From an uncultured virus (IMG/VR IMGVR_UViG_3300025769_011517) (taxonomy: Duplodnaviria; Heunggongvirae; Uroviricota; Caudoviricetes): a stretch of DNA of 20,000 nucleotides. Location: the IMG/VR virus record IMGVR_UViG_3300025769_011517, one strand, 5' to 3'. This document shows positions 1,851 through 19,651 of this stretch, in pieces; the first letter of the stretch is position 1, and each line of letters starts with the position of its first letter. Under the pieces are notes generated by a model. It was not told the origin of the DNA, did not search any database, and saw only the letters and a program-made list of their open reading frames with translations. Both the position numbers and the translations under genes were made by a program.

Positions 1851-2239
1851 GCCTCATCATCTAGTAAACGCTTCAACGCAGACTCAAAACTGACCTCATC
1901 AGGATCATTTGAGTACACAAATATAACATCATTCAATATTGCATCAAGCTCCTTAGCCAACAACTTGATCGCCATCTCCCGCACATCCGCAGGCTCATCA
2001 GAATCATAACGTTCTCTTACCGTGGATGCTATCTCAGAAGCAATCGCTTCATCCACATAGTCATCTAAATACTCTTGCGCCACAACAATCTGCATCTCTT
2101 TCTTTTTCCACATTACCAGATCGTAGTCTTTATCATTAATAGCACCACGTGGAGCAGTCAAGAACGTGACCTCAATCTGCCCACGTTTAACAACTGCTAA
2201 CACATCACTGTCAAACTCATCAGCCCAATCATAAATCAT
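1847..2239 (-). CDS. Hypothetical acidic protein
   Basis: 130-aa ORF with an ATGA overlap with whiB. Confidence 0.7.
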   Translation of the reverse strand: MIYDWADEFDSDVLAVVKRGQIEVTFLTAPRGAINDKDYDLVMWKKKEMQIVVAQEYLDDYVDEAIASEIASTVRERYDSDEPADVREMAIKLLAKELDAILNDVIFVYSNDPDEVSFESALKRLLDDEA

Positions 2240-2460
2240 GAATTAACTAACCTGTCCAACTCTGGCCCGGTCTTACCACCCCACACACCAATCGTGATTT
2301 TATTCGTGACTGCAAAATCTAAGCACTTAGCAGAAGCGGTACAACCTGCACAAACCTTAACGGCGCTCTTGCGTTGCGACGGCTTGCTCGAAAAAAACGT
2401 TCGGTCATTACCCCGACACGGCGCACTCTCAAACCACTCAGGGCTAGAAAGTTTAATCAT
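2236..2460 (-). CDS. whiB: WhiB-family Fe-S transcription factor
   Basis: W...APC, C-x2-C-x5-C (CAGCTASAKC) and GVWGG motifs; AAGGAG RBS. Confidence 0.92.
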   Translation of the reverse strand: MIKLSSPEWFESAPCRGNDRTFFSSKPSQRKSAVKVCAGCTASAKCLDFAVTNKITIGVWGGKTGPELDRLVNS

Positions 2461-2538: not shown

Positions 2539-2567
2539 TTGACCTGCGCCGTCGAAGCCAGTAGCAT
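2539..2567 (+). promoter_or_regulatory. Sigma70-type promoter facing the ORF-free structured region
   Basis: TTGACC-N17-TAGCAT. Confidence 0.6.
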
Positions 2568-2572
2568 ACTCA

Positions 2573-3000
2573 CAAACTACTACACAAGGAGCACACTGCC
2601 ACAAGACTGCAGCCGGGTAATCCCGATGACATAAACGTTCACTGAAGGACCGGTGGGTTACACTCGTTACGCAACTGGTACTAACACTTAAGAAACAAGA
2701 GGGCACGCCTGCCCAAAGAGGAACGATCTGAATCGCACGATAAACTGGACACACATCCTTGACGAGATGCCAGTCACTGCACGGAGAACATCAAGCCTTG
2801 AGGAACAGGTTCGGAACAAGCAAACGCCCATGCGGTTCCGGCACACGGGCTACTAGAGCCATATCTAGGGAGAGTGGGCATCGCTGAAAAAGATAGGCGG
2901 TGCTTGGGGTCCATGAAGTGAACAGCCTTGAATAAACCAATTGGGTTCGTCCCAGCCTCTCGTGCGTTAGCGTCAACTACCACACGAAAGGGAGGGAAAA
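2573..3000 (+). ncRNA. Candidate large structured non-coding RNA (family not recognised)
   Basis: No credible ORF and an upstream promoter. Long-range stem 2637-2651/2908-2923, plus local hairpins at 2614-2625, 2701-2714, 2744-2774, 2826-2850, 2853-2868, 2876-2905, 2942-2954 and 2956-2995. Confidence 0.5.
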
Positions 3001-3028
3001 CGCTGCCAAAAACGAGTAGGATAAACGC

Positions 3029-3562
3029 ATGTATGAAAACATCAAACTAGAATGGCAACAACACACTTTACAGCCCCTAAAGGGCAAGCCAGTCATGGAA
3101 GTTTTGCTTCGTGGACTTGAGTTTTTAGATGACTACTGGCTGTCTGCAGGAACGTTGCTGGGGCTAGAAAGAGACAACGAGTTCATTCCCCATGACACCG
3201 ATCTAGACATTGCTGTTATGGGTTACTGGGATAAAGCACGACTACCAGAAGAAGAGTTCTTTGCAGGAAGAGTTGTCAGTGATGGCGACAGGCCGATGCA
3301 AGCAGCGTATGTACATAAGGACACAAACATAGTTTTTGACGTGCTTCATTGGTGGCCGCACCCAACAGATACTGAACTTTTAATAAATATTAAAGAAGAC
3401 GGTCATCTAATCAGACCAAAGCACCTAGTCTCTCCCCTATCAACCAAAAATTATTTAGGTCACGAATTTAGCGTGCCTAACGATATTGATGGTTATTTAA
3501 CTGATTGGTATGACACGTGGCGCATCCCTCAAAGAGGAGGCAAGACTAAATGGCTAAAGTAG
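3029..3562 (+). CDS. LicD-family nucleotidyltransferase / phosphotransferase
   Basis: YWLSAGTLLGLERDNEFIPHDTDLDIA motif and C-terminal F.VP.D..GYL..WY..WRIP. Confidence 0.85.
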   Translation: MYENIKLEWQQHTLQPLKGKPVMEVLLRGLEFLDDYWLSAGTLLGLERDNEFIPHDTDLDIAVMGYWDKARLPEEEFFAGRVVSDGDRPMQAAYVHKDTNIVFDVLHWWPHPTDTELLINIKEDGHLIRPKHLVSPLSTKNYLGHEFSVPNDIDGYLTDWYDTWRIPQRGGKTKWLK

Positions 3563-3969
3563 CACTCACTGCAGCAATAATGGACTTGTGTCATGAGGGA
3601 CACATCAAACTTTTAAAGCACATGAAAGCTAGTGCTGATGTTGTAGTTGTAGTTTTACACTCCGACGAATCTTGTTGGAGCATTAAAGGCAAAATACCAA
3701 TCCAAACACTAGATCACAGAAAGAACAACCTAAAAATAACGGGTTTGGTTGACAATGTACTTGTCACCTACACAGATGACCCAAGCGCATCTTTCAAAGA
3801 AGCTTTTGATGCCTATCCAGACCACGAGTTTATTTTCATTCGAGGGAATGACAACTATGATTTCCCAGGAAAAGAAACAATTCTTGAACTAGGAATACCT
3901 ATTGAATTTACGGAGTACACAGCAGGAATTAGCAGCACTCAGATAAGAAATGAACTACTATGCGACTAA
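3550..3969 (+). CDS. Cytidylyltransferase (TagD/HxGH family)
   Basis: DLCHEGHIKLL (HxGH), HSDE, KGK.PIQ...R, RGND and YTAGISSTQIR motifs. Confidence 0.88.
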   Translation: MAKVALTAAIMDLCHEGHIKLLKHMKASADVVVVVLHSDESCWSIKGKIPIQTLDHRKNNLKITGLVDNVLVTYTDDPSASFKEAFDAYPDHEFIFIRGNDNYDFPGKETILELGIPIEFTEYTAGISSTQIRNELLCD

Positions 3970-4292
3970 TATGGTTACTAGCGGCACATCATTTTGCCGA
4001 TGTTGCGCTTCAACCAGACTGGTTGATAAAGTTAAAGTCAAAGCGACTGTTTGCAATTTTTGAACACGTTATGGTATACACAGGAGTTGTATGCGCTACC
4101 CTGTATTGGTTGGGAGATACAGTCACGCCTTGGATATTTGCGTACTTTGCTGTAGGGCACTGGCTAACAGACGCATTCTTCTACCAGTTTCTTCCGTGGA
4201 AAACTGGAAAGCCCAAACCTTACTGGCATGTTTACCCTGACCAAGCACTCCACTATTTACAAATAGTGCTTTATCTTCTGCTAATAGCCTAG
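3960..4292 (+). CDS. DUF3307-like membrane protein
   Basis: AHHFADVALQPDW, H..VY, HWLTD and DQALH pattern; hydrophobic. Confidence 0.7.
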   Translation: MRLIWLLAAHHFADVALQPDWLIKLKSKRLFAIFEHVMVYTGVVCATLYWLGDTVTPWIFAYFAVGHWLTDAFFYQFLPWKTGKPKPYWHVYPDQALHYLQIVLYLLLIA

Positions 4293-4301
4293 ATTTATTT
4301 T

Positions 4302-5024
4302 TTAAGGTACGTCTATAACAAACCCACGACGAACGTCAGACAGGTGACCGTGGGCCGAGTACTTCTCTAGGTCTTCGTGTAGGTTCGGCATGAAAACACC
4401 GCCTGCAGGAATGTCCATGTCTTGCCAAACGGGCGTAATGCGTGTACCGACAGGAAGGTCCTCAAATGGATCATTACCGTGACGTAAATGAATTTCAGTA
4501 ATAAACCCTGACCGAGTTTCGATGTTGATACCGTTGACAGGTAAGTCAACAAGGTTGATAAAATGGGAGCACTCATGAATATCAGAAACATCTGTTTCAG
4601 GTAGTCTTTCCCAATGACTAAACCTAGTCAAGTTCTCGTCGCTTGAATGAAACCCTTCCCATGCTGATACGGTATGCCAGCCACCTTCAGAATCTTTTTG
4701 AAAGTCAATAGAAAGGTGTGGGCCATCTAGCCACTCGCACCAAAAACTACCGGGAGGGACCACGGCATTGTTTAAAAAGTCTTCTTCCATTTGGGAAAGA
4801 TACAAAAACTTCGTTGCACCAATGCCCATACCAAAAAGGTTGTAGACGGGTCGGTGAATGTAAAAGCCTTCATATTGTGGAGCGCAGCCAGCGGGTCCTG
4901 CTTCTAATCCTTGATGTAACGCAACTTCTAACTTATTGAACACCCAACGAACTTCAGGTGCATCTCTGAAACGCTCCCAAGTTGCAAAGTCTTCGTCTTC
5001 TTCAACTGTCAAAAAATCCGTCAT
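4302..5024 (-). CDS. Conserved phage protein, possibly ATP-grasp-like
   Basis: 240-aa ORF with RPVYNLFGMGIGA, FWCEWLDGPHLSIDF and INIE...ITEIHLR.GND motifs, resembling a family seen in aquatic phages. Fold assignment is tentative. Confidence 0.55.
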   Translation of the reverse strand: MTDFLTVEEDEDFATWERFRDAPEVRWVFNKLEVALHQGLEAGPAGCAPQYEGFYIHRPVYNLFGMGIGATKFLYLSQMEEDFLNNAVVPPGSFWCEWLDGPHLSIDFQKDSEGGWHTVSAWEGFHSSDENLTRFSHWERLPETDVSDIHECSHFINLVDLPVNGINIETRSGFITEIHLRHGNDPFEDLPVGTRITPVWQDMDIPAGGVFMPNLHEDLEKYSAHGHLSDVRRGFVIDVP

Positions 5025-5374
5025 GTTGAAATATTCCTTAGTTGTTGTGCATCAAGAAACACTGTCGCTGTACCGTTTACAAGTTCAACTTGGTCTAGCG
5101 GGACCCCAACCTTAGAAGCCAAAGTTGCTTTAATCTTCAGCTCATCCATCGGATCATAATCAACCCAAGGCGCTACATCCGCAAATGGGTCCACGACAGC
5201 AGGGGGTGGCGGAGCAACACAAACTTTACAGCAAAGTCTATCTTCATTAACTTTAGGCTTGCGCTTAGTCTCTACTGTGTGAGAGCACTCAAGCTCAACA
5301 TGCCAAATAGTATTACCGTATTCGCCAAATTTCACGGCGTTAGTGACAGTACGCTTAGGGCCTCGTTTACTCAT
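5021..5374 (-). CDS. Hypothetical protein (possible metal-binding CxH...CxxC)
   Basis: 117-aa ORF with LECSH and CCKVC; TAGAAT lies 6 nt before the ATG. Confidence 0.7.
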   Translation of the reverse strand: MSKRGPKRTVTNAVKFGEYGNTIWHVELECSHTVETKRKPKVNEDRLCCKVCVAPPPPAVVDPFADVAPWVDYDPMDELKIKATLASKVGVPLDQVELVNGTATVFLDAQQLRNIST

Positions 5375-5430: not shown

Positions 5431-6405
5431 ATGGATAAAGATAAACTTCTCGAAGATGCTCTAGGACAAATTGAAAAGCAGTTTGGCGCTGGAAGCATCA
5501 TGCGTCTAGGCGACGCTGCTTCAATGCAAATTGAAACGATTTCAACCGGCTCTATCGCTCTTGACTTGGCGCTAGGGGTTGGAGGTGTTCCTCGTGGACG
5601 AGTCACCGAAATCTACGGACCTGAGTCTTCTGGCAAGACAACCATTGCCCTGCATGTGATTGCAGAAGCCCAAAAGAAAGGTGGCAAGTGTGCATTCATT
5701 GATGCGGAGCACGCCCTAGACCCTGTGTATGCTAAAGCAATCGGATGCGACATTGACAATCTTTTGGTTGCACAGCCAGACACAGGTGAGCAAGCCCTGA
5801 CCATTACTAACAAGCTGATTGAATCAGGCGCTCTAGACGTAGTAGTTGTAGACTCAGTTGCTGCGCTCACTCCTCGTGCCGAGATTGAAGGCGAAATGGG
5901 AGACAGCCACGTTGGCCTGCACGCTCGTCTGATGTCGCAGGCGATGCGAAAGATTGTAGCTAACCTTAATCACTCTAAGACAACCCTTATCATGATTAAC
6001 CAGTTGCGTGAAAAAATTGGTGTCATGTTCGGTTCTCCTGAAGTAACCACTGGCGGCAAGGCACTCAAGTTCTATGCGTCAGTTCGGATGGACATTCGTC
6101 GTATCGAAACGCTGAAGGACGGTGGCGAAGCATCTGGCAATAAGACACGAGTCAAGGTTGTCAAGAACAAGTGTGCTCCTCCTTTCCGTCAGGCAGAGTT
6201 TGAAATTGCATACGGTGAAGGAATCAGCCGTACCGGAGACATCGTGGACATTGCTGCTGAGATGGGTATCCTTGACAAGAAGGGCGCATGGTACGCCTAC
6301 AAAGGCGAGAACATTGGACAGGGCCGTGCCAATACCAAAGCTTTCTTGGATGAAAACGAGCAAATCCGAGAGACAATCGCAGATACCATCTACGCAACAA
6401 TTTGA
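5431..6405 (+). CDS. recA: Recombinase A
   Basis: [41 protein letters not shown] and [12 protein letters not shown]. Bacterial-type RecA lacking a long C-terminal tail. Confidence 0.98.
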
Positions 6406-7441: not shown

Positions 7442-7649
7442 CTACATAGTCTAATACAGTACCCATTAGATGCAGTGCAAGACCCGCAAGAGAAATATAT
7501 ATTCCCTGACGTAACGTGGTCGATGACAAGGTGATCAACACCAACCCTGTACCTGCTAATGTCCATCCGAGGTAAAGCATTTCTCTACCCATACGACGGA
7601 CGGCCCCTACTGCTAGTTTGATTATTTTTTTCATGGTGCCTCCTTTCAC
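7413..7649 (-). CDS. Small two-TM membrane protein (true start may be 7634)
   Basis: WTLAGTGLVLITLS and IYISLAGLALHL; coupled to the upstream large gene. Confidence 0.7.
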   Translation of the reverse strand: MKGGTMKKIIKLAVGAVRRMGREMLYLGWTLAGTGLVLITLSSTTLRQGIYISLAGLALHLMGTVLDYVDDERENESN

Positions 7650-9721
7650 CGAGACCTTCTTCTAGAATTACCCTTTTTACCTTTACCTCCACCGGAGTCG
7701 CCTCCGGGGCCTCCTCCTCCGCCACCACCGGAAGGACCGCCACCGCCGCCACCGGCAGGACCAGCAGATGTCGCAGCAGTGGCTACAGTCACGGCTGCGG
7801 CGGCAGCAACAACAGTACGACGAGTTTCTGTATCAACCACAGAACCCTCAGCGATGTATTCATTGAAAGCCTCGTCGTCAAAGATATCTACAGTCTCTTC
7901 AAACTCTGCCTTAACTTCGTCGTCCGCTTCGTTAACGGCAGCGACGAGAACAACTTTGGCATCGTCAGAGATGTTGTCAAAGTTTTCGTCAGTCACAAGG
8001 CTTTTGATTTCTTCCGTGGTGATTTCACCGTCAACGACATTCAAGAAATCTTCCGCAAGTTCCTCATCAAGCTCGTCTAGTTGTTCCACAACTTTGACTT
8101 CTGCTTCATCAACCTCAAGCAATTCAACGCCTTGAGTATCAATACCGAGTTCCTCAAACTCCACTTTAGTTTCAGCGGCTTTTTCTTCTTCAGGTGTCGG
8201 TGGAATGGTCGTTATTACCGGCAGCGTCGTCGTTGTCGTCGTTGGCGGCAGCGTTGTTGTCGTGCTTGTTGTAGTTGTAGTACTTGTTGTTGAAGAAGTA
8301 GTCGTAGTTGGGGTTACCGTAGTCGTCGTAGGCGGTAGGGTTGTAGTCGTTGATGTTGTCGTCGTAGTGGTAGATGGCGGTGCCTCCGTCGTTGTAGTTG
8401 TAGGCGCTACCGTCGTCGTAGTTGTAGGCGGCAACGTCGTTGTTGTCGTTACAGGTATTGTAGTGGTTGTGGTCGTGGTTGGAGGCAAGGTCGTAGTAGT
8501 TGTTGTCGTCGTGGTCGTCGTTGTGGTCGGGGGAACGGTGGTTGTCGTCGTGGTAGTCGGAGGAGTACCTTCTGAAACTTGAATTTCCATCGTCTCTCCA
8601 ACATGACAATCGTTCTCAGAACCGCAAGCAAGAATGTTAAAGAACCACGTCGCACTACCTAGGTCATCATAAGCAACCGTGTGAGAAGTCGAAGAAATGG
8701 TTTGAGTATAAGTAATGTTAGACTCATCTATTTCCCACGGATTACCAAGTTGGTTCCAAGCGATCTTGTAATGCGCAGGATCGACAAAACCGTCACTAGA
8801 AGCATCCCAACTAAATGTGATGTCGCCAGTAGCGTCATCCCGTTCGTAAGTCTGGTTGTCAACTATGTCGGGCATATTCATGATGGAGATGGAGGCAACA
8901 GATGTCCAATTAGAGTACAAAGCGTTAGTGTCGTTATCCGAGCGAACATTAACGTTGAACAAACCGTGTGCTTCGTTGAACAACTGCTCTATGTAAGAAG
9001 CGTTGAACGTATACTCGGTAACGAGAGCGTTCTCATCTCCAACGTTACCAGTAGCAACGCCATACGGTCCAGCGTTCCCGTCGTCATTCAGACCAAACCC
9101 AATAGCGTAACGTTCTGGATCAACGTTTCCGTCAGTTGGTGCATCCCAATCAGCCTTCACCGTACCGTTGTAGTAGTCAACGGTTAAAGTCAAATTGGTA
9201 GGATCGCCTATAGTTTGAGGAATTGTCGTCGTGGTCGTTGTGGTGGTTGTAGTGGTTGTGGTCGTGGTTGTGGGTATACTGTCTGAAGTTAAAGACAGAT
9301 CAGCAACTATTTCATAGTCATAACCAGACGGGTTCGAACCCAAGCCACGCAAACTGCAGCAATAGCCAGCCCTAATTCTGTAATCTCCAGCATTTAGGGT
9401 GGTATAAATCTTTGACGAAACACACTGATCAGCGAAGTTGTGGTTACCGTCGTCGTTTTGCGCAACTAACGCTCCAGTAGATTCGGGACCGTCTTCGTAT
9501 ACCCATAAATAGGGGTCTGCGCCGGGTTCTGAGCATGACCTGTTTGAATTACCATAGATAATGACTTGAGTCCCGTCATTATCAATTGAAAAGTACCAGT
9601 CAGATTCTTCGGTGACTGTGTATGTGGCGGCGGCTGCAGGTACAGGAGAAAACCACGCTAAAGCAAAAACCCACACAAGAGAAGCTTTAGCTGCACGCCT
9701 AAAATGTCTACCTCGACTCAT
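7646..9721 (-). CDS. Large secreted/surface protein: signal peptide, PPC-like and FN3-like domains, Thr-rich linkers, acidic domain, C-terminal hydrophobic + Gly-rich + basic tail
   Basis: ATG at 9721 with a GGAGA RBS. Basic/hydrophobic N-terminus ending PAAAA; DPYLWVY...NDDG; W.AP and FSWDA FN3-like motifs; long poly-Thr tracts. Confidence 0.8.
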   Translation of the reverse strand: MSRGRHFRRAAKASLVWVFALAWFSPVPAAAATYTVTEESDWYFSIDNDGTQVIIYGNSNRSCSEPGADPYLWVYEDGPESTGALVAQNDDGNHNFADQCVSSKIYTTLNAGDYRIRAGYCCSLRGLGSNPSGYDYEIVADLSLTSDSIPTTTTTTTTTTTTTTTTIPQTIGDPTNLTLTVDYYNGTVKADWDAPTDGNVDPERYAIGFGLNDDGNAGPYGVATGNVGDENALVTEYTFNASYIEQLFNEAHGLFNVNVRSDNDTNALYSNWTSVASISIMNMPDIVDNQTYERDDATGDITFSWDASSDGFVDPAHYKIAWNQLGNPWEIDESNITYTQTISSTSHTVAYDDLGSATWFFNILACGSENDCHVGETMEIQVSEGTPPTTTTTTTVPPTTTTTTTTTTTTTLPPTTTTTTTIPVTTTTTLPPTTTTTVAPTTTTTEAPPSTTTTTTSTTTTLPPTTTTVTPTTTTSSTTSTTTTTSTTTTLPPTTTTTTLPVITTIPPTPEEEKAAETKVEFEELGIDTQGVELLEVDEAEVKVVEQLDELDEELAEDFLNVVDGEITTEEIKSLVTDENFDNISDDAKVVLVAAVNEADDEVKAEFEETVDIFDDEAFNEYIAEGSVVDTETRRTVVAAAAAVTVATAATSAGPAGGGGGGPSGGGGGGGPGGDSGGGKGKKGNSRRRSR
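8205..8560 (-). repeat. Low-complexity (ACN)n Thr-coding tract
   Basis: Encodes repeated (L/V)PPTTTTTT units. Confidence 0.85.
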
Positions 9722-9769
9722 AATATCTCCACAAAACAGCACTTAACATTTATTGTACAAGGAAAGCCC

Positions 9770-15545: not shown

Positions 15546-16225
15546 TGACAAACCAGATCACAGTGCTAGACCAAGGCTTCGTAAGACTAGACGCCGCAAC
15601 AGCAGACGACCTGTCCGTAGTAAACGCCGCACGAGTCAGCTTTGGTCAGCACAGTGACGGCCTAACCGAAAAAGACAAAGGTCTCATCGGTTTCCTGATG
15701 CGGGAACAGCACGGAACCCCCTTCGAACACAACTTCTTCAGGTTCCACATCAAAGCACCTATCTTTGTTGTGCGAGAATGGTTCCGTCACCGCATCGGCT
15801 GGTCATACAACGAATACTCTGGACGATACTCAGAGATTCCCACCGAAGCCTACATGCCCGCAACCGAACAAATGCGGACACAAGTAGGCAAGCCCGGATC
15901 ATACACATTTGAACCCATGGAATCTGCAGAGTTCTCCGAAGCCCGAATGAAACTATCATACCACGCTAGTTTCCACGCCTACGAGAAACTCCTAGAAGAA
16001 GGCGTAGCAAAAGAAGTAGCCCGCATGGTGCTACCCGTCGCAACCTACAGCGAATTCTACGCCACAACAAACGCACGGGCACTCATGAACTTCATCAACC
16101 TACGAGGCGACGAAACCGCCCAATGGGAGATTAGACAATACGCAGATGCCTTGGAACACTTCTTCCAAGCAGCAATGCCCATCACACACGACCACTTCAT
16201 CAACAACGGGCGAGTAGCGCCCTGA
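15545..16225 (+). CDS. thyX: Flavin-dependent thymidylate synthase
   Basis: VNAARVS, HGTPFEH, REWFRHRIGWSYNEYSGRY, EVARMVLP and AQWEIR. Confidence 0.97.
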   Translation: MTNQITVLDQGFVRLDAATADDLSVVNAARVSFGQHSDGLTEKDKGLIGFLMREQHGTPFEHNFFRFHIKAPIFVVREWFRHRIGWSYNEYSGRYSEIPTEAYMPATEQMRTQVGKPGSYTFEPMESAEFSEARMKLSYHASFHAYEKLLEEGVAKEVARMVLPVATYSEFYATTNARALMNFINLRGDETAQWEIRQYADALEHFFQAAMPITHDHFINNGRVAP

Positions 16226-16236
16226 AAAGGAGAAAC

Positions 16237-17097
16237 ATGAAACACACAATTTACTGGAACGAAAAGTACACAGGCGCTGAACACGCCTTCGACACCACCC
16301 GCAAAAGCGGCGAAATCGCAGACGCAATCGGTCACGAACACATCACCGACCCCGCCAGCAACGGACACGTCGCCCTACACAACGCAAACGACGAAATCAA
16401 AAAGGCGCTGAGCGCCGACTACTACGAAGACCTGAAAACCGGTGGACCCAAGTCGCAATCCAACGGATTCGCATGGGACTACGGCATTTGGGAAATGGCA
16501 CTCAACTCCACAGCAGGAGTCATGTCAGCCACGGCAGAAGCCATCGTCAACAACACCGTAGCAGGAAGCCTCTCTTCAGGACTTCACCACGCCCACCACA
16601 ACAACGGCGCAGGGTTCTGCACAGTCAACGGCCTAGCCGTCACAGCAAACTGGCTCAACTCCCTACACGTCACCATCCTAGACTTCGACGCCCACTGCGG
16701 CGGAGGAACCGTCAAAATGCTACGGCACCTCAACATCGACTCCAGAGTGGAACAATACGACATCTCCACCAACTACTTTGACCAATACGAAGAAGATGAA
16801 ACACACAACATCCGAATCGCACAATCAGACGCAGACTACACAGATGCCGTAAACGAAACACTAAACAAAGTTAACCCCAACACAAACGTGATTTTGTACA
16901 ACGCAGGAACAGACCCCTACCCCACAATCTCACACGAAACACTAGCCGAACGAGAAAACACCGTATTCCAATGGGCAAAACAACACAACATCCCCATCGC
17001 ATACGTACTCGCCGGAGGCTACACCTCTGCCCAAACCATGGACAGCCTCGTAGACTCCCACATCAACACACTAGACGCCGCAGAAAGCATCGTGTAA
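16237..17097 (+). CDS. Histone-deacetylase-family (Zn-dependent) amidohydrolase
   Basis: GLHHA, GFCTVNGLA, ILDFDAHCGGGT, YNAGTDP and LAGGY. Confidence 0.88.
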   Translation: MKHTIYWNEKYTGAEHAFDTTRKSGEIADAIGHEHITDPASNGHVALHNANDEIKKALSADYYEDLKTGGPKSQSNGFAWDYGIWEMALNSTAGVMSATAEAIVNNTVAGSLSSGLHHAHHNNGAGFCTVNGLAVTANWLNSLHVTILDFDAHCGGGTVKMLRHLNIDSRVEQYDISTNYFDQYEEDETHNIRIAQSDADYTDAVNETLNKVNPNTNVILYNAGTDPYPTISHETLAERENTVFQWAKQHNIPIAYVLAGGYTSAQTMDSLVDSHINTLDAAESIV

Positions 17098-17106
17098 AAT
17101 AACACC

Positions 17107-17463
17107 ATGGACCCATACGAAACCTTCCCCACATACAGAGCAACAAAAAACTGTTTAGACGACCTCAACCCCGACGCACTACTAGCCGACGGACTTGAAT
17201 TCGCCTGCATAGGATGGACCGAAGTATGGGTCCCCCAACAAACAGGCGGCGTAGAACGCCTCCCAATCGCCGTATACAGCAAAAACAAAGTCATCGCCAT
17301 ACTCATGGAAGAAACAGACATGACACTAGAAGACGCACTAGAATACGCCGAATACAACATCTACGCCGCCTACATGGGACCCAACACCCCCATCTTCATA
17401 GACGACAGCTTCCAAACCATCCCCACACAACCCGTCCACCCACAAGACATGTACGAACTGTGA
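17107..17463 (+). CDS. Conserved phage hypothetical protein
   Basis: LADGLE.A.IG...AVYS..KVI..L...MT.EDA.EY.EYNI.AAYMG.NTPIF, a pattern common in aquatic phages. Confidence 0.8.
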   Translation: MDPYETFPTYRATKNCLDDLNPDALLADGLEFACIGWTEVWVPQQTGGVERLPIAVYSKNKVIAILMEETDMTLEDALEYAEYNIYAAYMGPNTPIFIDDSFQTIPTQPVHPQDMYEL

Positions 17464-19346
17464 AACGACTCTACCTCAACGGCACAAAACTCATCCTAGA
17501 CACACCATACAACAAAGATGAAGTACAAGCCCTAAAAACATCATTCCCCAACGCACGCTGGGACAAAATCAACAAACACTGGACACTACCCGTAGCCGCC
17601 CTAAAACGAGCCATATCCTTCGCCAACTCATGGAACATCAACGTGGACGAAGAACTCATAAGGCTACAACTACCCGACCACCCAATCGGCACAACCACCA
17701 TCAGACTCGAAAAAGAAATCCTAAAAATCAGCGTCCCCTACGACACCCTACAAATCCACGACCTCAAAGCCATCCCCGGCATAAAATGGAACCCCCACCA
17801 AAACCACTGGGAAACACCATACAACAACGTCCACGAACTCATCCAATGGGCAGACAAATACAACCACCCCATCCCCAACCACATCCGCACACAAGCAGAA
17901 ATCGAAACCAAAAAAGCCCAACACGCCCAAGAACTCACACAAGCAACCGACGCAAACATCAACATCCCAACCCTCCAACTCCAACTCTACCCATACCAAA
18001 AAGCAGGCGTAGCCTACGCCGCAGAAAAACAACGCACCTTCATCGCAGACGAAATGGGCCTCGGCAAATCACTCCAAGCCCTCGCAACCACAGAACACAC
18101 AAACCAATACCCCGCCCTCATCATCTGCCCAACCAGCCTCACAGAAGACTGGAAAACCAAAATCCAAGAAGCCCTACCCCACCGCACCATCCAAACCATC
18201 CAAGGCCGCAAAACCCCCACACTGACCGAAACCGACTACACCATCATCGGATACCCCAACATCCACGCCCAAAAACAACACCTCAACAACCAACACCACA
18301 ACACCCTCATCCTAGACGAATCCCACTACTGCAAAAACCCAGACGCACAACGCACCAAAGCCGCCAAAAACATCGCCAAAAACATCCCAACCACCGGCAA
18401 CATCCTCCTCCTCACCGGCACACCCATCACCAACATGCCAGCCGAATACGCCCCACAACTCGAAATCCTCGGCCACATCGACAACTTCGGAGGCCGCTGG
18501 AACTTCTACAAACGATACTGCGGAGCCTACAGAGACAACTGGGGCCACTGGCAAATCCACGGCTCAACCAACAACAAAGAACTCCTCAACAAACTACAAA
18601 CCCACTGCTACATCCGCAGAGAAAAACAACACGTCCTCACCGACCTCCCACCAATCACATACAACACCATCCACACCACAATGGACAAAAAACACCGCAC
18701 CATGTACAACCACGCCCTCAACGACCTCCAAGAATGGTACACCCAACAACAAGAACAAATCGCCATCAACGAAGGCACCAACCCCAACCAAGCCCGAATC
18801 CGAGCACACTACGCAACACAAAACTACGAAACCCTCATCCAACTCACAGAACTCAGAAAAATCGCCGCCAACTCCAAAATCCCCCACGCCCTAGAATGGA
18901 TCGAAAACGCCAACAACTCAGGACAAAAAATCGTCATCGCCGCCCACCACCGCCAAATAGTACAAACCCTAGCAAACGAACTCAACGCCCCAATGATCAT
19001 CGGAGGCCAAAACCCCCAAAAGACCGAAACCGCCAAACAAGAATTCCAACAAAACACAAACTGCATGAACATCATCATCTCAATAGACGCAGCCGCACAC
19101 GGACACACCCTCACAGCATCAAACAACATGCTCTTCATCGAAGCCCCCTGGACACCCGCCAAATACCACCAAACCTGCGCCCGAATCCACCGAATCGGAC
19201 AAACCAAACCCGCCACCATCCACAACCTCATCAACCCCAACACCATCGACCAACACATCTACAACACACTACAAAACAAAACCCAAAAAACACAACCAGC
19301 AATCACACCCACAGCCATACAAAACATCCTCAACACAAAACCCTGA
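17460..19346 (+). CDS. SNF2-family helicase with two N-terminal HARP-like domains
   Basis: Probable GTG start at 17460 (GTGA overlap). Motifs LYPYQ, IADEMGLGKS, ILDESH, LTGTP, GHTLT and ARIHRIGQ; two PY...LK..P...W...W repeats at the N-terminus. Confidence 0.9.
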   Translation: MKRLYLNGTKLILDTPYNKDEVQALKTSFPNARWDKINKHWTLPVAALKRAISFANSWNINVDEELIRLQLPDHPIGTTTIRLEKEILKISVPYDTLQIHDLKAIPGIKWNPHQNHWETPYNNVHELIQWADKYNHPIPNHIRTQAEIETKKAQHAQELTQATDANINIPTLQLQLYPYQKAGVAYAAEKQRTFIADEMGLGKSLQALATTEHTNQYPALIICPTSLTEDWKTKIQEALPHRTIQTIQGRKTPTLTETDYTIIGYPNIHAQKQHLNNQHHNTLILDESHYCKNPDAQRTKAAKNIAKNIPTTGNILLLTGTPITNMPAEYAPQLEILGHIDNFGGRWNFYKRYCGAYRDNWGHWQIHGSTNNKELLNKLQTHCYIRREKQHVLTDLPPITYNTIHTTMDKKHRTMYNHALNDLQEWYTQQQEQIAINEGTNPNQARIRAHYATQNYETLIQLTELRKIAANSKIPHALEWIENANNSGQKIVIAAHHRQIVQTLANELNAPMIIGGQNPQKTETAKQEFQQNTNCMNIIISIDAAAHGHTLTASNNMLFIEAPWTPAKYHQTCARIHRIGQTKPATIHNLINPNTIDQHIYNTLQNKTQKTQPAITPTAIQNILNTKP

Positions 19347-19431
19347 CATAACACAAACCAACCAACCCATAAAAAATATGTCACAAGTCCGCCCACGGAT
19401 GGAGGTCGCCCTCGAAAAGTCCCGGGCGATA

Positions 19432-19579
19432 CGAACAGGTGTTCGGTCGGGGTGGGCGAACAGGTGTTCGTGCGAACAGGTGTTCGGTCGTGTCGGCATG
19501 CGAACGTGTGTTCGTGCGAACGTGTGTTCGGTCGGGGCTGTCCGGGGTGCGAACATATGTTCGTGCGAACGTGTGTTCG
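19432..19579. repeat. Array of seven palindromic LexA (SOS/Cheo-type) boxes CGAAC-N4-GTTCG
   Basis: Boxes start at 19432, 19457, 19473, 19501, 19517, 19550 and 19566. Central spacers are AGGT x3, GTGT x3 and ATAT, all fitting RNRY. Confidence 0.85.
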
Positions 19580-19651
19580 TGCAAGCTTTGACCATCACAC
19601 GTCGACTCATCAAGCGTGAGATCGTTAAAGCCTTAACTATCTTTGGTGCAT

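Follow-up and report, generated by a model that had tools for sequence, protein, structure and literature searches.

The window, by which we mean the whole stretch of 20,000 nucleotides that was analyzed, has the gene content of a phage: whiB, a Rad52-like protein, a PD-(D/E)XK nuclease, recA, SSB, a primase-helicase, thymidine kinase and thyX. A near-identical relative (G012) and a 128-kb relative (G007) also carry terminase, portal, capsid, tail sheath and baseplate genes and encode Pol A, a sigma-70 factor and a class II ribonucleotide reductase, with a second WhiB in G007. The carriers of the RNA described here are contractile-tailed phages (myoviruses) of roughly 148 kb, as calculated via CheckV completeness, and tRNA genes are present elsewhere in their genomes. 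Because their capsid protein is best matched, among cultured phages, by those of Gordonia and Brevibacterium (45 to 47%), the host is most likely actinobacterial. Three of the metagenome contigs carrying the RNA bear Tara Oceans names.

Beside the divergent whiB gene lies a stretch for which the first-pass annotation had proposed a structured noncoding RNA behind a TTGACC-N17-TAGCAT promoter. The promoter was found exactly as described (Table 1), and TTGAC-17/18-TANNNT stands 52 to 71 nt upstream of the first conserved motif in all 49 copies that we compared. We place the start of the RNA about 7 nt past the -10, while its 3' end would lie at or beyond the G-rich tail, possibly extending to about 3012. 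Across the copies, the RNA measures 398 to 472 nt (median, 414), and the G+C content of the stretch is 0.53 versus 0.43 in the flanks. No U-tract terminator was seen at the 3' end, where the G-rich tail resembles a Shine-Dalgarno sequence. The leader harbors AGGAG in 47 of the 49 copies, followed 3 to 13 nt behind by a start codon in a single one of these 47, which leaves 46 of 49 with AGGAG and no start codon.

Table 1. Features of the RNA locus (window coordinates)
Feature	Position	Strand	Evidence or remark
whiB	2236..2460	-	Pfam Whib; divergent from the RNA; promoter-like sites at 2472-2523
Sigma-A-type promoter of the RNA (TTGACC, 17 nt, TAGCAT)	2539..2567	+	Kept in 49/49 copies
RNA gene	2574..2996	+	Both ends placed from sequence and alignment
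A/C-rich 5' leader with Shine-Dalgarno-like AAGGAG (2586-2591), no start codon behind	2574..2613	+	49-copy comparison
Hairpin P0 (2614-17/2622-25), then conserved unpaired motif AUGACAUAA	2614..2634	+	6 double changes, 0 breaks; alignment
Closing helices P1 (2637-42/2918-23) and P2 (2647-51/2908-12), variable internal loop	2637..2923	+	Covariation, RNAalifold
Long-range helix P3, CACUC (2661-65)/GAGUG (2872-76), nested	2661..2876	+	100% of cells paired; RNAalifold
PK1, UGGU (2676-79)/ACCA (2979-82) in 3' hairpin loop	2676..2982	+	99% paired
PK2, GGGC (2701-04)/GCCC (2826-29) in P10 loop	2701..2829	+	Co-change in 6 copies
Long arm P5-P9, most invariant internal loop (2729-42 facing 2775-90)	2707..2810	+	Covariation, alignment
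PK3, kissing loop, UUGAC (2759-63)/GUCAA (2972-76)	2759..2976	+	12 double changes
Hairpin P10 (2811-17/2835-41)	2811..2841	+	RNAalifold and final model
Probable PK4, small H-type, GGC (2848-50)/GCC (2858-60), at P11	within 2848..2868	+	49/49 paired, 1 double change
Hairpin P11 (2853-57/2864-68)	within 2848..2868	+	5 double changes
Hairpin P12, A-rich loop	2877..2904	+	11 double changes
3' hairpin P14, loop containing the partners of PK1 and PK3	2957..2990	+	Covariation, final model
-10 of the next gene (LicD family, 3029-3562), outside the RNA	3017..3022	+	Sequence, Pfam

The stretch had been described as free of open reading frames. This does not hold literally, as four minus-strand ORFs of 52 to 80 codons overlap it; what stands is that no frame is conserved among the copies. 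The longest stop-free stretch across copies ranges from 44 to 78 codons on the plus strand and from 50 to 105 on the minus strand, and the aligned copies differ by indels of 1, 2, 4 and 5 nt. A minigene AUG-ACA-UAA was considered and rejected: the U of the AUG and the last A vary, and GACAUA is mostly kept.

Homologues were collected by protein-anchored and motif scans, which gave 49 IMG/VR contigs (48 of the 49 loci of one scan, plus one); five partial loci were left out before alignment, and 49 distinct sequences were kept. A motif scan of metagenomes returned at least 29 RNA-bearing loci among the 120 listed, and none of the 92 loci from the same type of scan in GTDB was genuine. A covariance model (CM) search of 141 genomes of the best-RecA-scoring order, with 19 candidates scored per genome and no positive control, gave 0 matches, and blastn against 50,697 phage records found 23-nt chance matches only. 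Three motif matches (L055, L370 and L661) were dismissed as chance, two of them (L055 and L661) lying in ORF-like sequence. No copy was detected in three related phage records that are 60 to 88% complete (G002, G009 and G010); in G002 and G009, the whiB/p117 regions are filled with ORFs.

The 49 copies share a median pairwise identity of 72% (minimum, 49%), the most distant subfamily (L311, L402 and L501) standing at 54%. There is one copy per record in all six long records. The divergent whiB gene adjoins 47 of the 49 copies, the remaining two having too little upstream DNA, and the whiB-RNA interval holds an insert of about 1.1 kb in two lineages. When genes at 93% identity or more were left out, DNA identity to the window copy was higher for the RNA than for whiB in 41 of 42 comparisons, than for Rad52 in 36 of 38, and than for recA in 27 of 30. 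The alignment contains 93 invariant positions, a number that overstates constraint relative to phylum-wide families because all copies come from one phage clade. Fifty-nine of them fall outside the scored helices, including about eight in the tentative 2-bp stems P7b and P7c and in the 3' tail, and they are densest where 2729-42 faces 2775-90.

A covariation scan was run over 85,491 column pairs against a purpose-made, tree-based null in the manner of R-scape (40 shuffles). Its top 12 places were taken by 12 canonical pairs, four of them at E ≤ 0.05. RNAalifold, applied to 18 of the 49 copies, recovered P0, P1, P2, P3 and P5-P12, with 37 of 70 pairs compensatory. Our final model comprises 91 pairs, with 95.9% of the cells paired and changes on both sides in 57 pairs, and the tree count amounts to 120 independent double changes on 86 pairs, or 1.40 per pair, whereas random pairs have 0.06; the pairing and double-change figures are inflated because the helices were chosen from the same alignment that was scored. 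In the controls for this model, 0 of 500 shuffles scored as high, and pairing was 32 to 40% when the partners were slid. G-U cells outnumber A-C cells (363 versus 71), and the plus strand is therefore the RNA strand.

The first-pass annotation had named beforehand a folding energy no better than that of shuffled sequence as a sign against its own claim, and this is what we obtained for single sequences, with z values of -0.92 for the window RNA, -0.23 for the core (2613-2992) and -0.68 for a distant copy. We do not take this outcome as decisive because short and crossing helices escape the energy model; as judged from the alignment, the case for a structured RNA rests on covariation instead of folding energy. 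The nested part of the model comes to -70.7 kcal/mol versus an MFE of -109.5 kcal/mol, and the fold must therefore be held by tertiary contacts, by Mg2+ or by a partner.

Much of the secondary structure proposed earlier was retained. The long-range helix 2637-2651/2908-2923, which corresponds to P1 and P2, is present as drawn (8 and 7 independent double changes), and the tandem GA mismatch within it occurs in part of the copies without being constant, positions 2644 and 2916 being G and A in 32 of 49. P1 and P2 lead into a junction with P12 and P3, and P3, with compensatory changes in three of its five pairs, closes the core. The pairings ACTGG/CCAGT, CATC/GATG and CTAGA/TCTAG showed compensatory changes among copies, as did GGCATCGCT with GGCGGTGCT. 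The GGGCA/TGCCC hairpin had to be abandoned (78% paired, 0 compensatory pairs, 7 breaks). Of the two hairpins foreseen at the 3' end, the last one was kept as P14, and the UUCG hairpin was not supported, with 1 double change and 5 breaks. Within the P5-P9 arm, the purine-purine pair 2722/2794 switches from AA to GG. A pairing of the leader AAGG with 2926-30 was tried and rejected (18 breaks).

Pseudoknots were absent from the earlier reading; the alignment supports three, and a fourth, PK4, is probable. In PK1, two of the four pairs are compensatory, and the tree shows 3 double changes against 2 breaks. The GCCC/GGGC hairpin proposed at 2826-29/2847-50 is paired in 99% of the cells yet shows 0 double changes and 2 breaks, and GCCC 2826-29 co-changes instead with GGGC 2701-04, which constitutes PK2; there, G-C turns into A-U in the six copies through two independent events. 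The PK3 pair 2762-2973 ranks second of the 85,491 column pairs. Together, PK1 and PK3 pin the loop of P14 back onto a compact core. In the L311/L402/L501 subfamily, P3, PK1 and PK4 are kept, P9 and PK3 are missing, and no clear PK2 is seen. Another locus (L015, about 5135-5215, minus strand) carries a tandem duplication of about 36 nt over the 5' strands of P3 and PK1.

We then compared the RNA with known classes. Rfam, searched at the gathering score and at E ≤ 10, gave nothing beyond chance matches for the window or for the 13 loci holding more divergent copies, and tRNAs only on whole related records, so that the Rfam check suggested earlier ended without a match. No published description was found in a full-text search by title and abstract start, in which subscription journals are thinly covered. 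A catalogue of 8,495 motifs of 29 to 151 nt has been predicted from IMG/VR (Fremin 2023; PMC10690425); six motifs of the RNA had no match in those of its supplements that were searched, and a fragment of the RNA could be among its entries. The RNA corresponds to the descriptive kind of large ornate phage noncoding RNAs in being longer than 350 nt, with multistem junctions, covarying pseudoknots, its own promoter and no ORF. The proposal of a functional RNA of an undescribed class thus found support in the promoter present in 49 of 49 copies, in compensatory changes far above the controls and in the plus-strand G-U excess. This family of large knotted phage RNAs is real and probably undescribed, and it lies outside every catalogued family.

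The comparisons with published systems, here and below, draw on the accessible portions of the papers cited. In kind, the RNA comes closest to ROOL and GOLLD, in constraint to raiA, and in biology perhaps to the Pleft RNA. Like ROOL, it is a large phage-borne noncoding RNA that contains several multistem junctions and in which covariation revealed three pseudoknots (PMC5737381, PMC12286853). ROOL averages 581 nt, with six multistem junctions, three pseudoknots and 10 highly conserved positions (PMC5737381), whereas the present RNA has about 414 nt and 93 invariant positions. It also differs in the order of its helices, as far as the text description of ROOL goes, in not occurring in tRNA islands and in having no Rfam match. 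ROOL and GOLLD often lie near tRNA genes in phages, whereas the present RNA mostly does not: a tRNA adjoins it in the loci of 1 of 48 lineages and lies 3 kb away in one more. With GOLLD it shares an ornate, phage-associated architecture with kissing loops (PMC12990946, PMC5737381), but it has far fewer helices than the P1-P27 of GOLLD (PMC12990946), no linkage to tRNA clusters and no Rfam match; the conserved 3' domain of GOLLD (P14-P27) gave no Rfam-model match in the window or the 13 divergent-copy loci.

The likeness to raiA (RF03072) lies in a pseudoknotted, trans-acting RNA with many invariant unpaired nucleotides that occurs in Actinomycetota; raiA, however, has about 200 nt, is chromosomal and folds into P1-P8 with two pseudoknots (PMC10861870). 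Eight actinobacterial raiA loci searched with our model gave nothing better than an E value of 0.2. The Pleft RNA of the Cluster A mycobacteriophages L5 and D29 is a noncoding early actinophage transcript of about 500 bp with a strong promoter and serves as a functional precedent, but it is divergent and processed into smaller RNAs, and no conserved ornate fold is reported in the accessible text (PMC5712189). No similarity to our RNA was found at the right end of mycobacteriophage L5. Ms1/6S RNAs are abundant actinobacterial noncoding RNAs, of 200 to 300 nt, that bind RNA polymerase, but they form a long hairpin with a central bubble (PMC9130861), whereas the present RNA is multibranched, knotted and without an Rfam match. 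As context for this comparison, a sigma factor and WhiB proteins are also phage-encoded.

Bacterial RNase P RNA has a P4 pseudoknot with conserved regions CR-I to CR-V. No Rfam match to RNase P was obtained, and our models missed the five (CM) and four (HMM) actinobacterial RNase P genes that they were run against. A resemblance of CACAGAG/UUGAG to J11/12 failed, as 2713-14 pair with 2802-03 by covariation, and a resemblance to the interdigitated T-loops of RNase P was rejected as well. For tmRNA (tRNA-like domain and tag frame), ARAGORN found nothing in the window, and there is no conserved frame. Group I and group II introns gave no Rfam match, and the RNA is intergenic, with its own promoter, in all copies. 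Complementarity to or mimicry of rRNA did not exceed chance (longest matches, 8 to 12 nt), and no guide-like match longer than 13 nt was found in G012.

We also looked for partners among the phage proteins. An omegaRNA/HEARO, a retron RNA or the noncoding RNA of a defense reverse transcriptase would come with a cognate IscB, TnpB or reverse transcriptase gene. The Pfam matches of the 28 window proteins include none of these three, and neither they nor Ro60 turned up when ORFs of 95 aa or more were scanned in two relatives: 130 ORFs in G007, which is 87% complete, and 76 of the 88 in G012, which is 61% complete. An obligatory role of p130 was rejected, as p130 is absent beside the distant copy L311. 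In a comparison of gene content, 32 of 88 shared ORFs were missing from the RNA-less records, which are incomplete, and no evident RNA partner was among them. As no reverse transcriptase, TnpB, IscB or Ro60 was found in the relatives scanned, a conserved partner would more likely be the host's.

The explanation that we tentatively put first, without calling it probable, is that of an independent, stable trans-acting RNA with a new fold that would bind conserved host machinery early in infection. The RNA has a host-type promoter of its own, which stands back to back with that of the whiB-recombination operon. It would be made early and in quantity by host RNA polymerase, and its knots, by burying the 3' end, would make it last. 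The 5' exonuclease RNase J could be held off by a 30S subunit that stays on the Shine-Dalgarno motif lacking a start codon; in B. subtilis, ribosomes bound to Shine-Dalgarno sequences are described as blocking RNase J1 (PMC5737220). A binding surface may be formed by the invariant loops (chiefly those at 2729-42/2775-90 and 2626-34), and through it one conserved host macromolecule of gene expression or defense would be titrated or redirected during host takeover. For an abundant, stable and toxic early noncoding RNA, actinophages offer a precedent in the Pleft RNA (PMC5712189).

Unpaired nucleotides that never vary suggest either a fixed partner or an active site. If the invariant loops were a metal-binding active site, the RNA would be a ribozyme of novel fold; one example would be a hydrolase that acts in trans on RNA or DNA, in the way of RNase P or of a nuclease derived from an ORF-less group II intron. 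Its size is like that of RNase P, the crossing of PK2 and P10 resembles the P3/P7 crossing order of group I introns, and the phages carry tRNA genes; moreover, its 93 invariant positions compare with the 10 highly conserved ones of ROOL (PMC5737381) and 51 in raiA (PMC10861870). Nevertheless, we consider such an enzyme unlikely, given that no RNase P, group I or group II model matched at E ≤ 10, that the RNA interrupts no gene and that no substrate is evident. Somewhat broader, and rated as rather unlikely, is the idea of a large ribozyme or RNA machine of unprecedented fold and activity in an aquatic actinobacterial myovirus clade, in which the four crossing helices would shape a protein-free active or binding site out of the roughly 59 invariant unpaired nucleotides, and which would act on a target of the host during infection. 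We give little weight, too, to an RNA-only homo-oligomer of the ROOL/GOLLD type, in which PK1 and PK3 would form between neighboring chains to build a ring or cage serving as scaffold or container. The RNA is as phage-borne, ornate and unannotated as ROOL and GOLLD, a covarying contact of ROOL first read as tertiary proved intermolecular (PMC12286853), and in 23 of the 49 copies P1 is followed by a palindrome of 4 nt. This palindrome is, however, missing in the window copy, PK3 is absent in the three most distant copies, the RNA is shorter and far more invariant than ROOL, and the rarity of adjoining tRNAs also argues against it. Cage formation and host binding are mutually compatible.

The remaining alternatives turn on the surroundings of the gene. 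A cis-acting leader or riboswitch for downstream cargo (the LicD cassette, the methyltransferase cassette or recA) would fit the same-strand ORF found downstream in about 30 of 45 copies, usually within 40 to 65 nt, as well as the Shine-Dalgarno-like tail and the lack of a visible terminator. However, among these 45 copies (four with less than 100 nt downstream were left out), the RNA is followed by a convergent gene in 14, a LicD cassette in 8, a methyltransferase-type cassette in 17, recA in 3 and other genes in 3, the genes other than the convergent ones being of at least four unrelated kinds, and its fold is the same whatever the downstream context. A leader or riboswitch would be expected to sit at a constant place 5' of related genes. 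Same-strand downstream genes, where examined, have their own -10 or full promoter; in the window, the predicted TAGGAT was indeed found six bases ahead of the LicD ATG, and the LicD mRNA may be leaderless. Because the downstream genes vary and 14 of 45 are convergent, the RNA is probably an independent gene, and we regard a leader as improbable. That the RNA primes replication or forms an R-loop at a phage origin, in the manner of ColE1 RNA II, is very improbable in our view: the promoter is strong and of constitutive type, the 3' tail is G-rich, and the phage encodes Pol A, an RNase H-like protein, a primase-helicase, SSB and RecA, but the tail pairs inside P14, the sequence immediately 3' shows no conservation and differs between copies through insertions, and four crossing helices are more than a primer needs. 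That the stretch makes no RNA at all and is instead a DNA element, or a protein gene that is short or has decayed, would agree with the shuffle-level folding energy and the overlapping minus-strand ORFs; it is hardly credible against the compensatory pairs, the G-U excess, the indels of 1, 2, 4 and 5 nt and the short stop-free stretches.

Only a handful of bacterial and phage RNA classes of such size and complexity are known, and those whose role has been established work as catalysts or as core machines. The present RNA, which has no Rfam relative, is under tighter conservation than recA, and its model, now backed by covariation, specifies the pseudoknot partners exactly and comes with compensatory variants found in nature. 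This model makes the RNA ready for probing, cryo-EM and activity screens without phage culture, and it offers a test case for whether cages of the GOLLD/ROOL type are general or whether large phage RNAs act as catalysts or decoys.

Several further observations concern the locus and the genome. The interval between the RNA and the gene for a 117-aa protein (window 3029-5024) is an insertion hotspot, containing LicD, cytidylyltransferase and DUF3307 genes in the window and a methyltransferase/polysaccharide deacetylase/PhyH cassette or nothing in relatives; cargo genes in relatives have the same -10-to-ATG spacing as LicD (window 3017-3031). In one lineage, the RNA is closely followed, on its own strand, by a tRNA-Arg(UCU) (L408, 1654-1726, minus strand). 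Two -35-like hexamers set back to back at 2510-2544 (TGTCAA on the plus strand, then TTGAC) serve the whiB promoter and the divergent RNA promoter, and most relatives retain them. The recA gene (5431-6405) is host-like, 69 to 70% identical to the best of 121 genomes sampled, and recA, the sigma factor and Pol A were not found in the three related RNA-less records, which are incomplete. The protein encoded at 7646-9742 has 698 aa, contains long threonine tracts and matches nothing in Pfam; small membrane-like and holin-like genes follow. In G012, an ORF of about 3,050 codons separates the capsid gene from the prohead protease region (L602, 4008-13163, plus strand). A histone deacetylase-domain gene is present at 16237-17097, and G007 has one too. 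Strand bias is extreme at 16000-19500 (AT skew up to 0.56, GC skew down to -0.51), a region that spans the deacetylase and SNF2 helicase genes. Finally, imperfect repeats with units like CGAACA-TGTTCG, noticed via odd ORFs, lie 3' of the SNF2 gene (19378-19620) and could represent an origin or a genome end.
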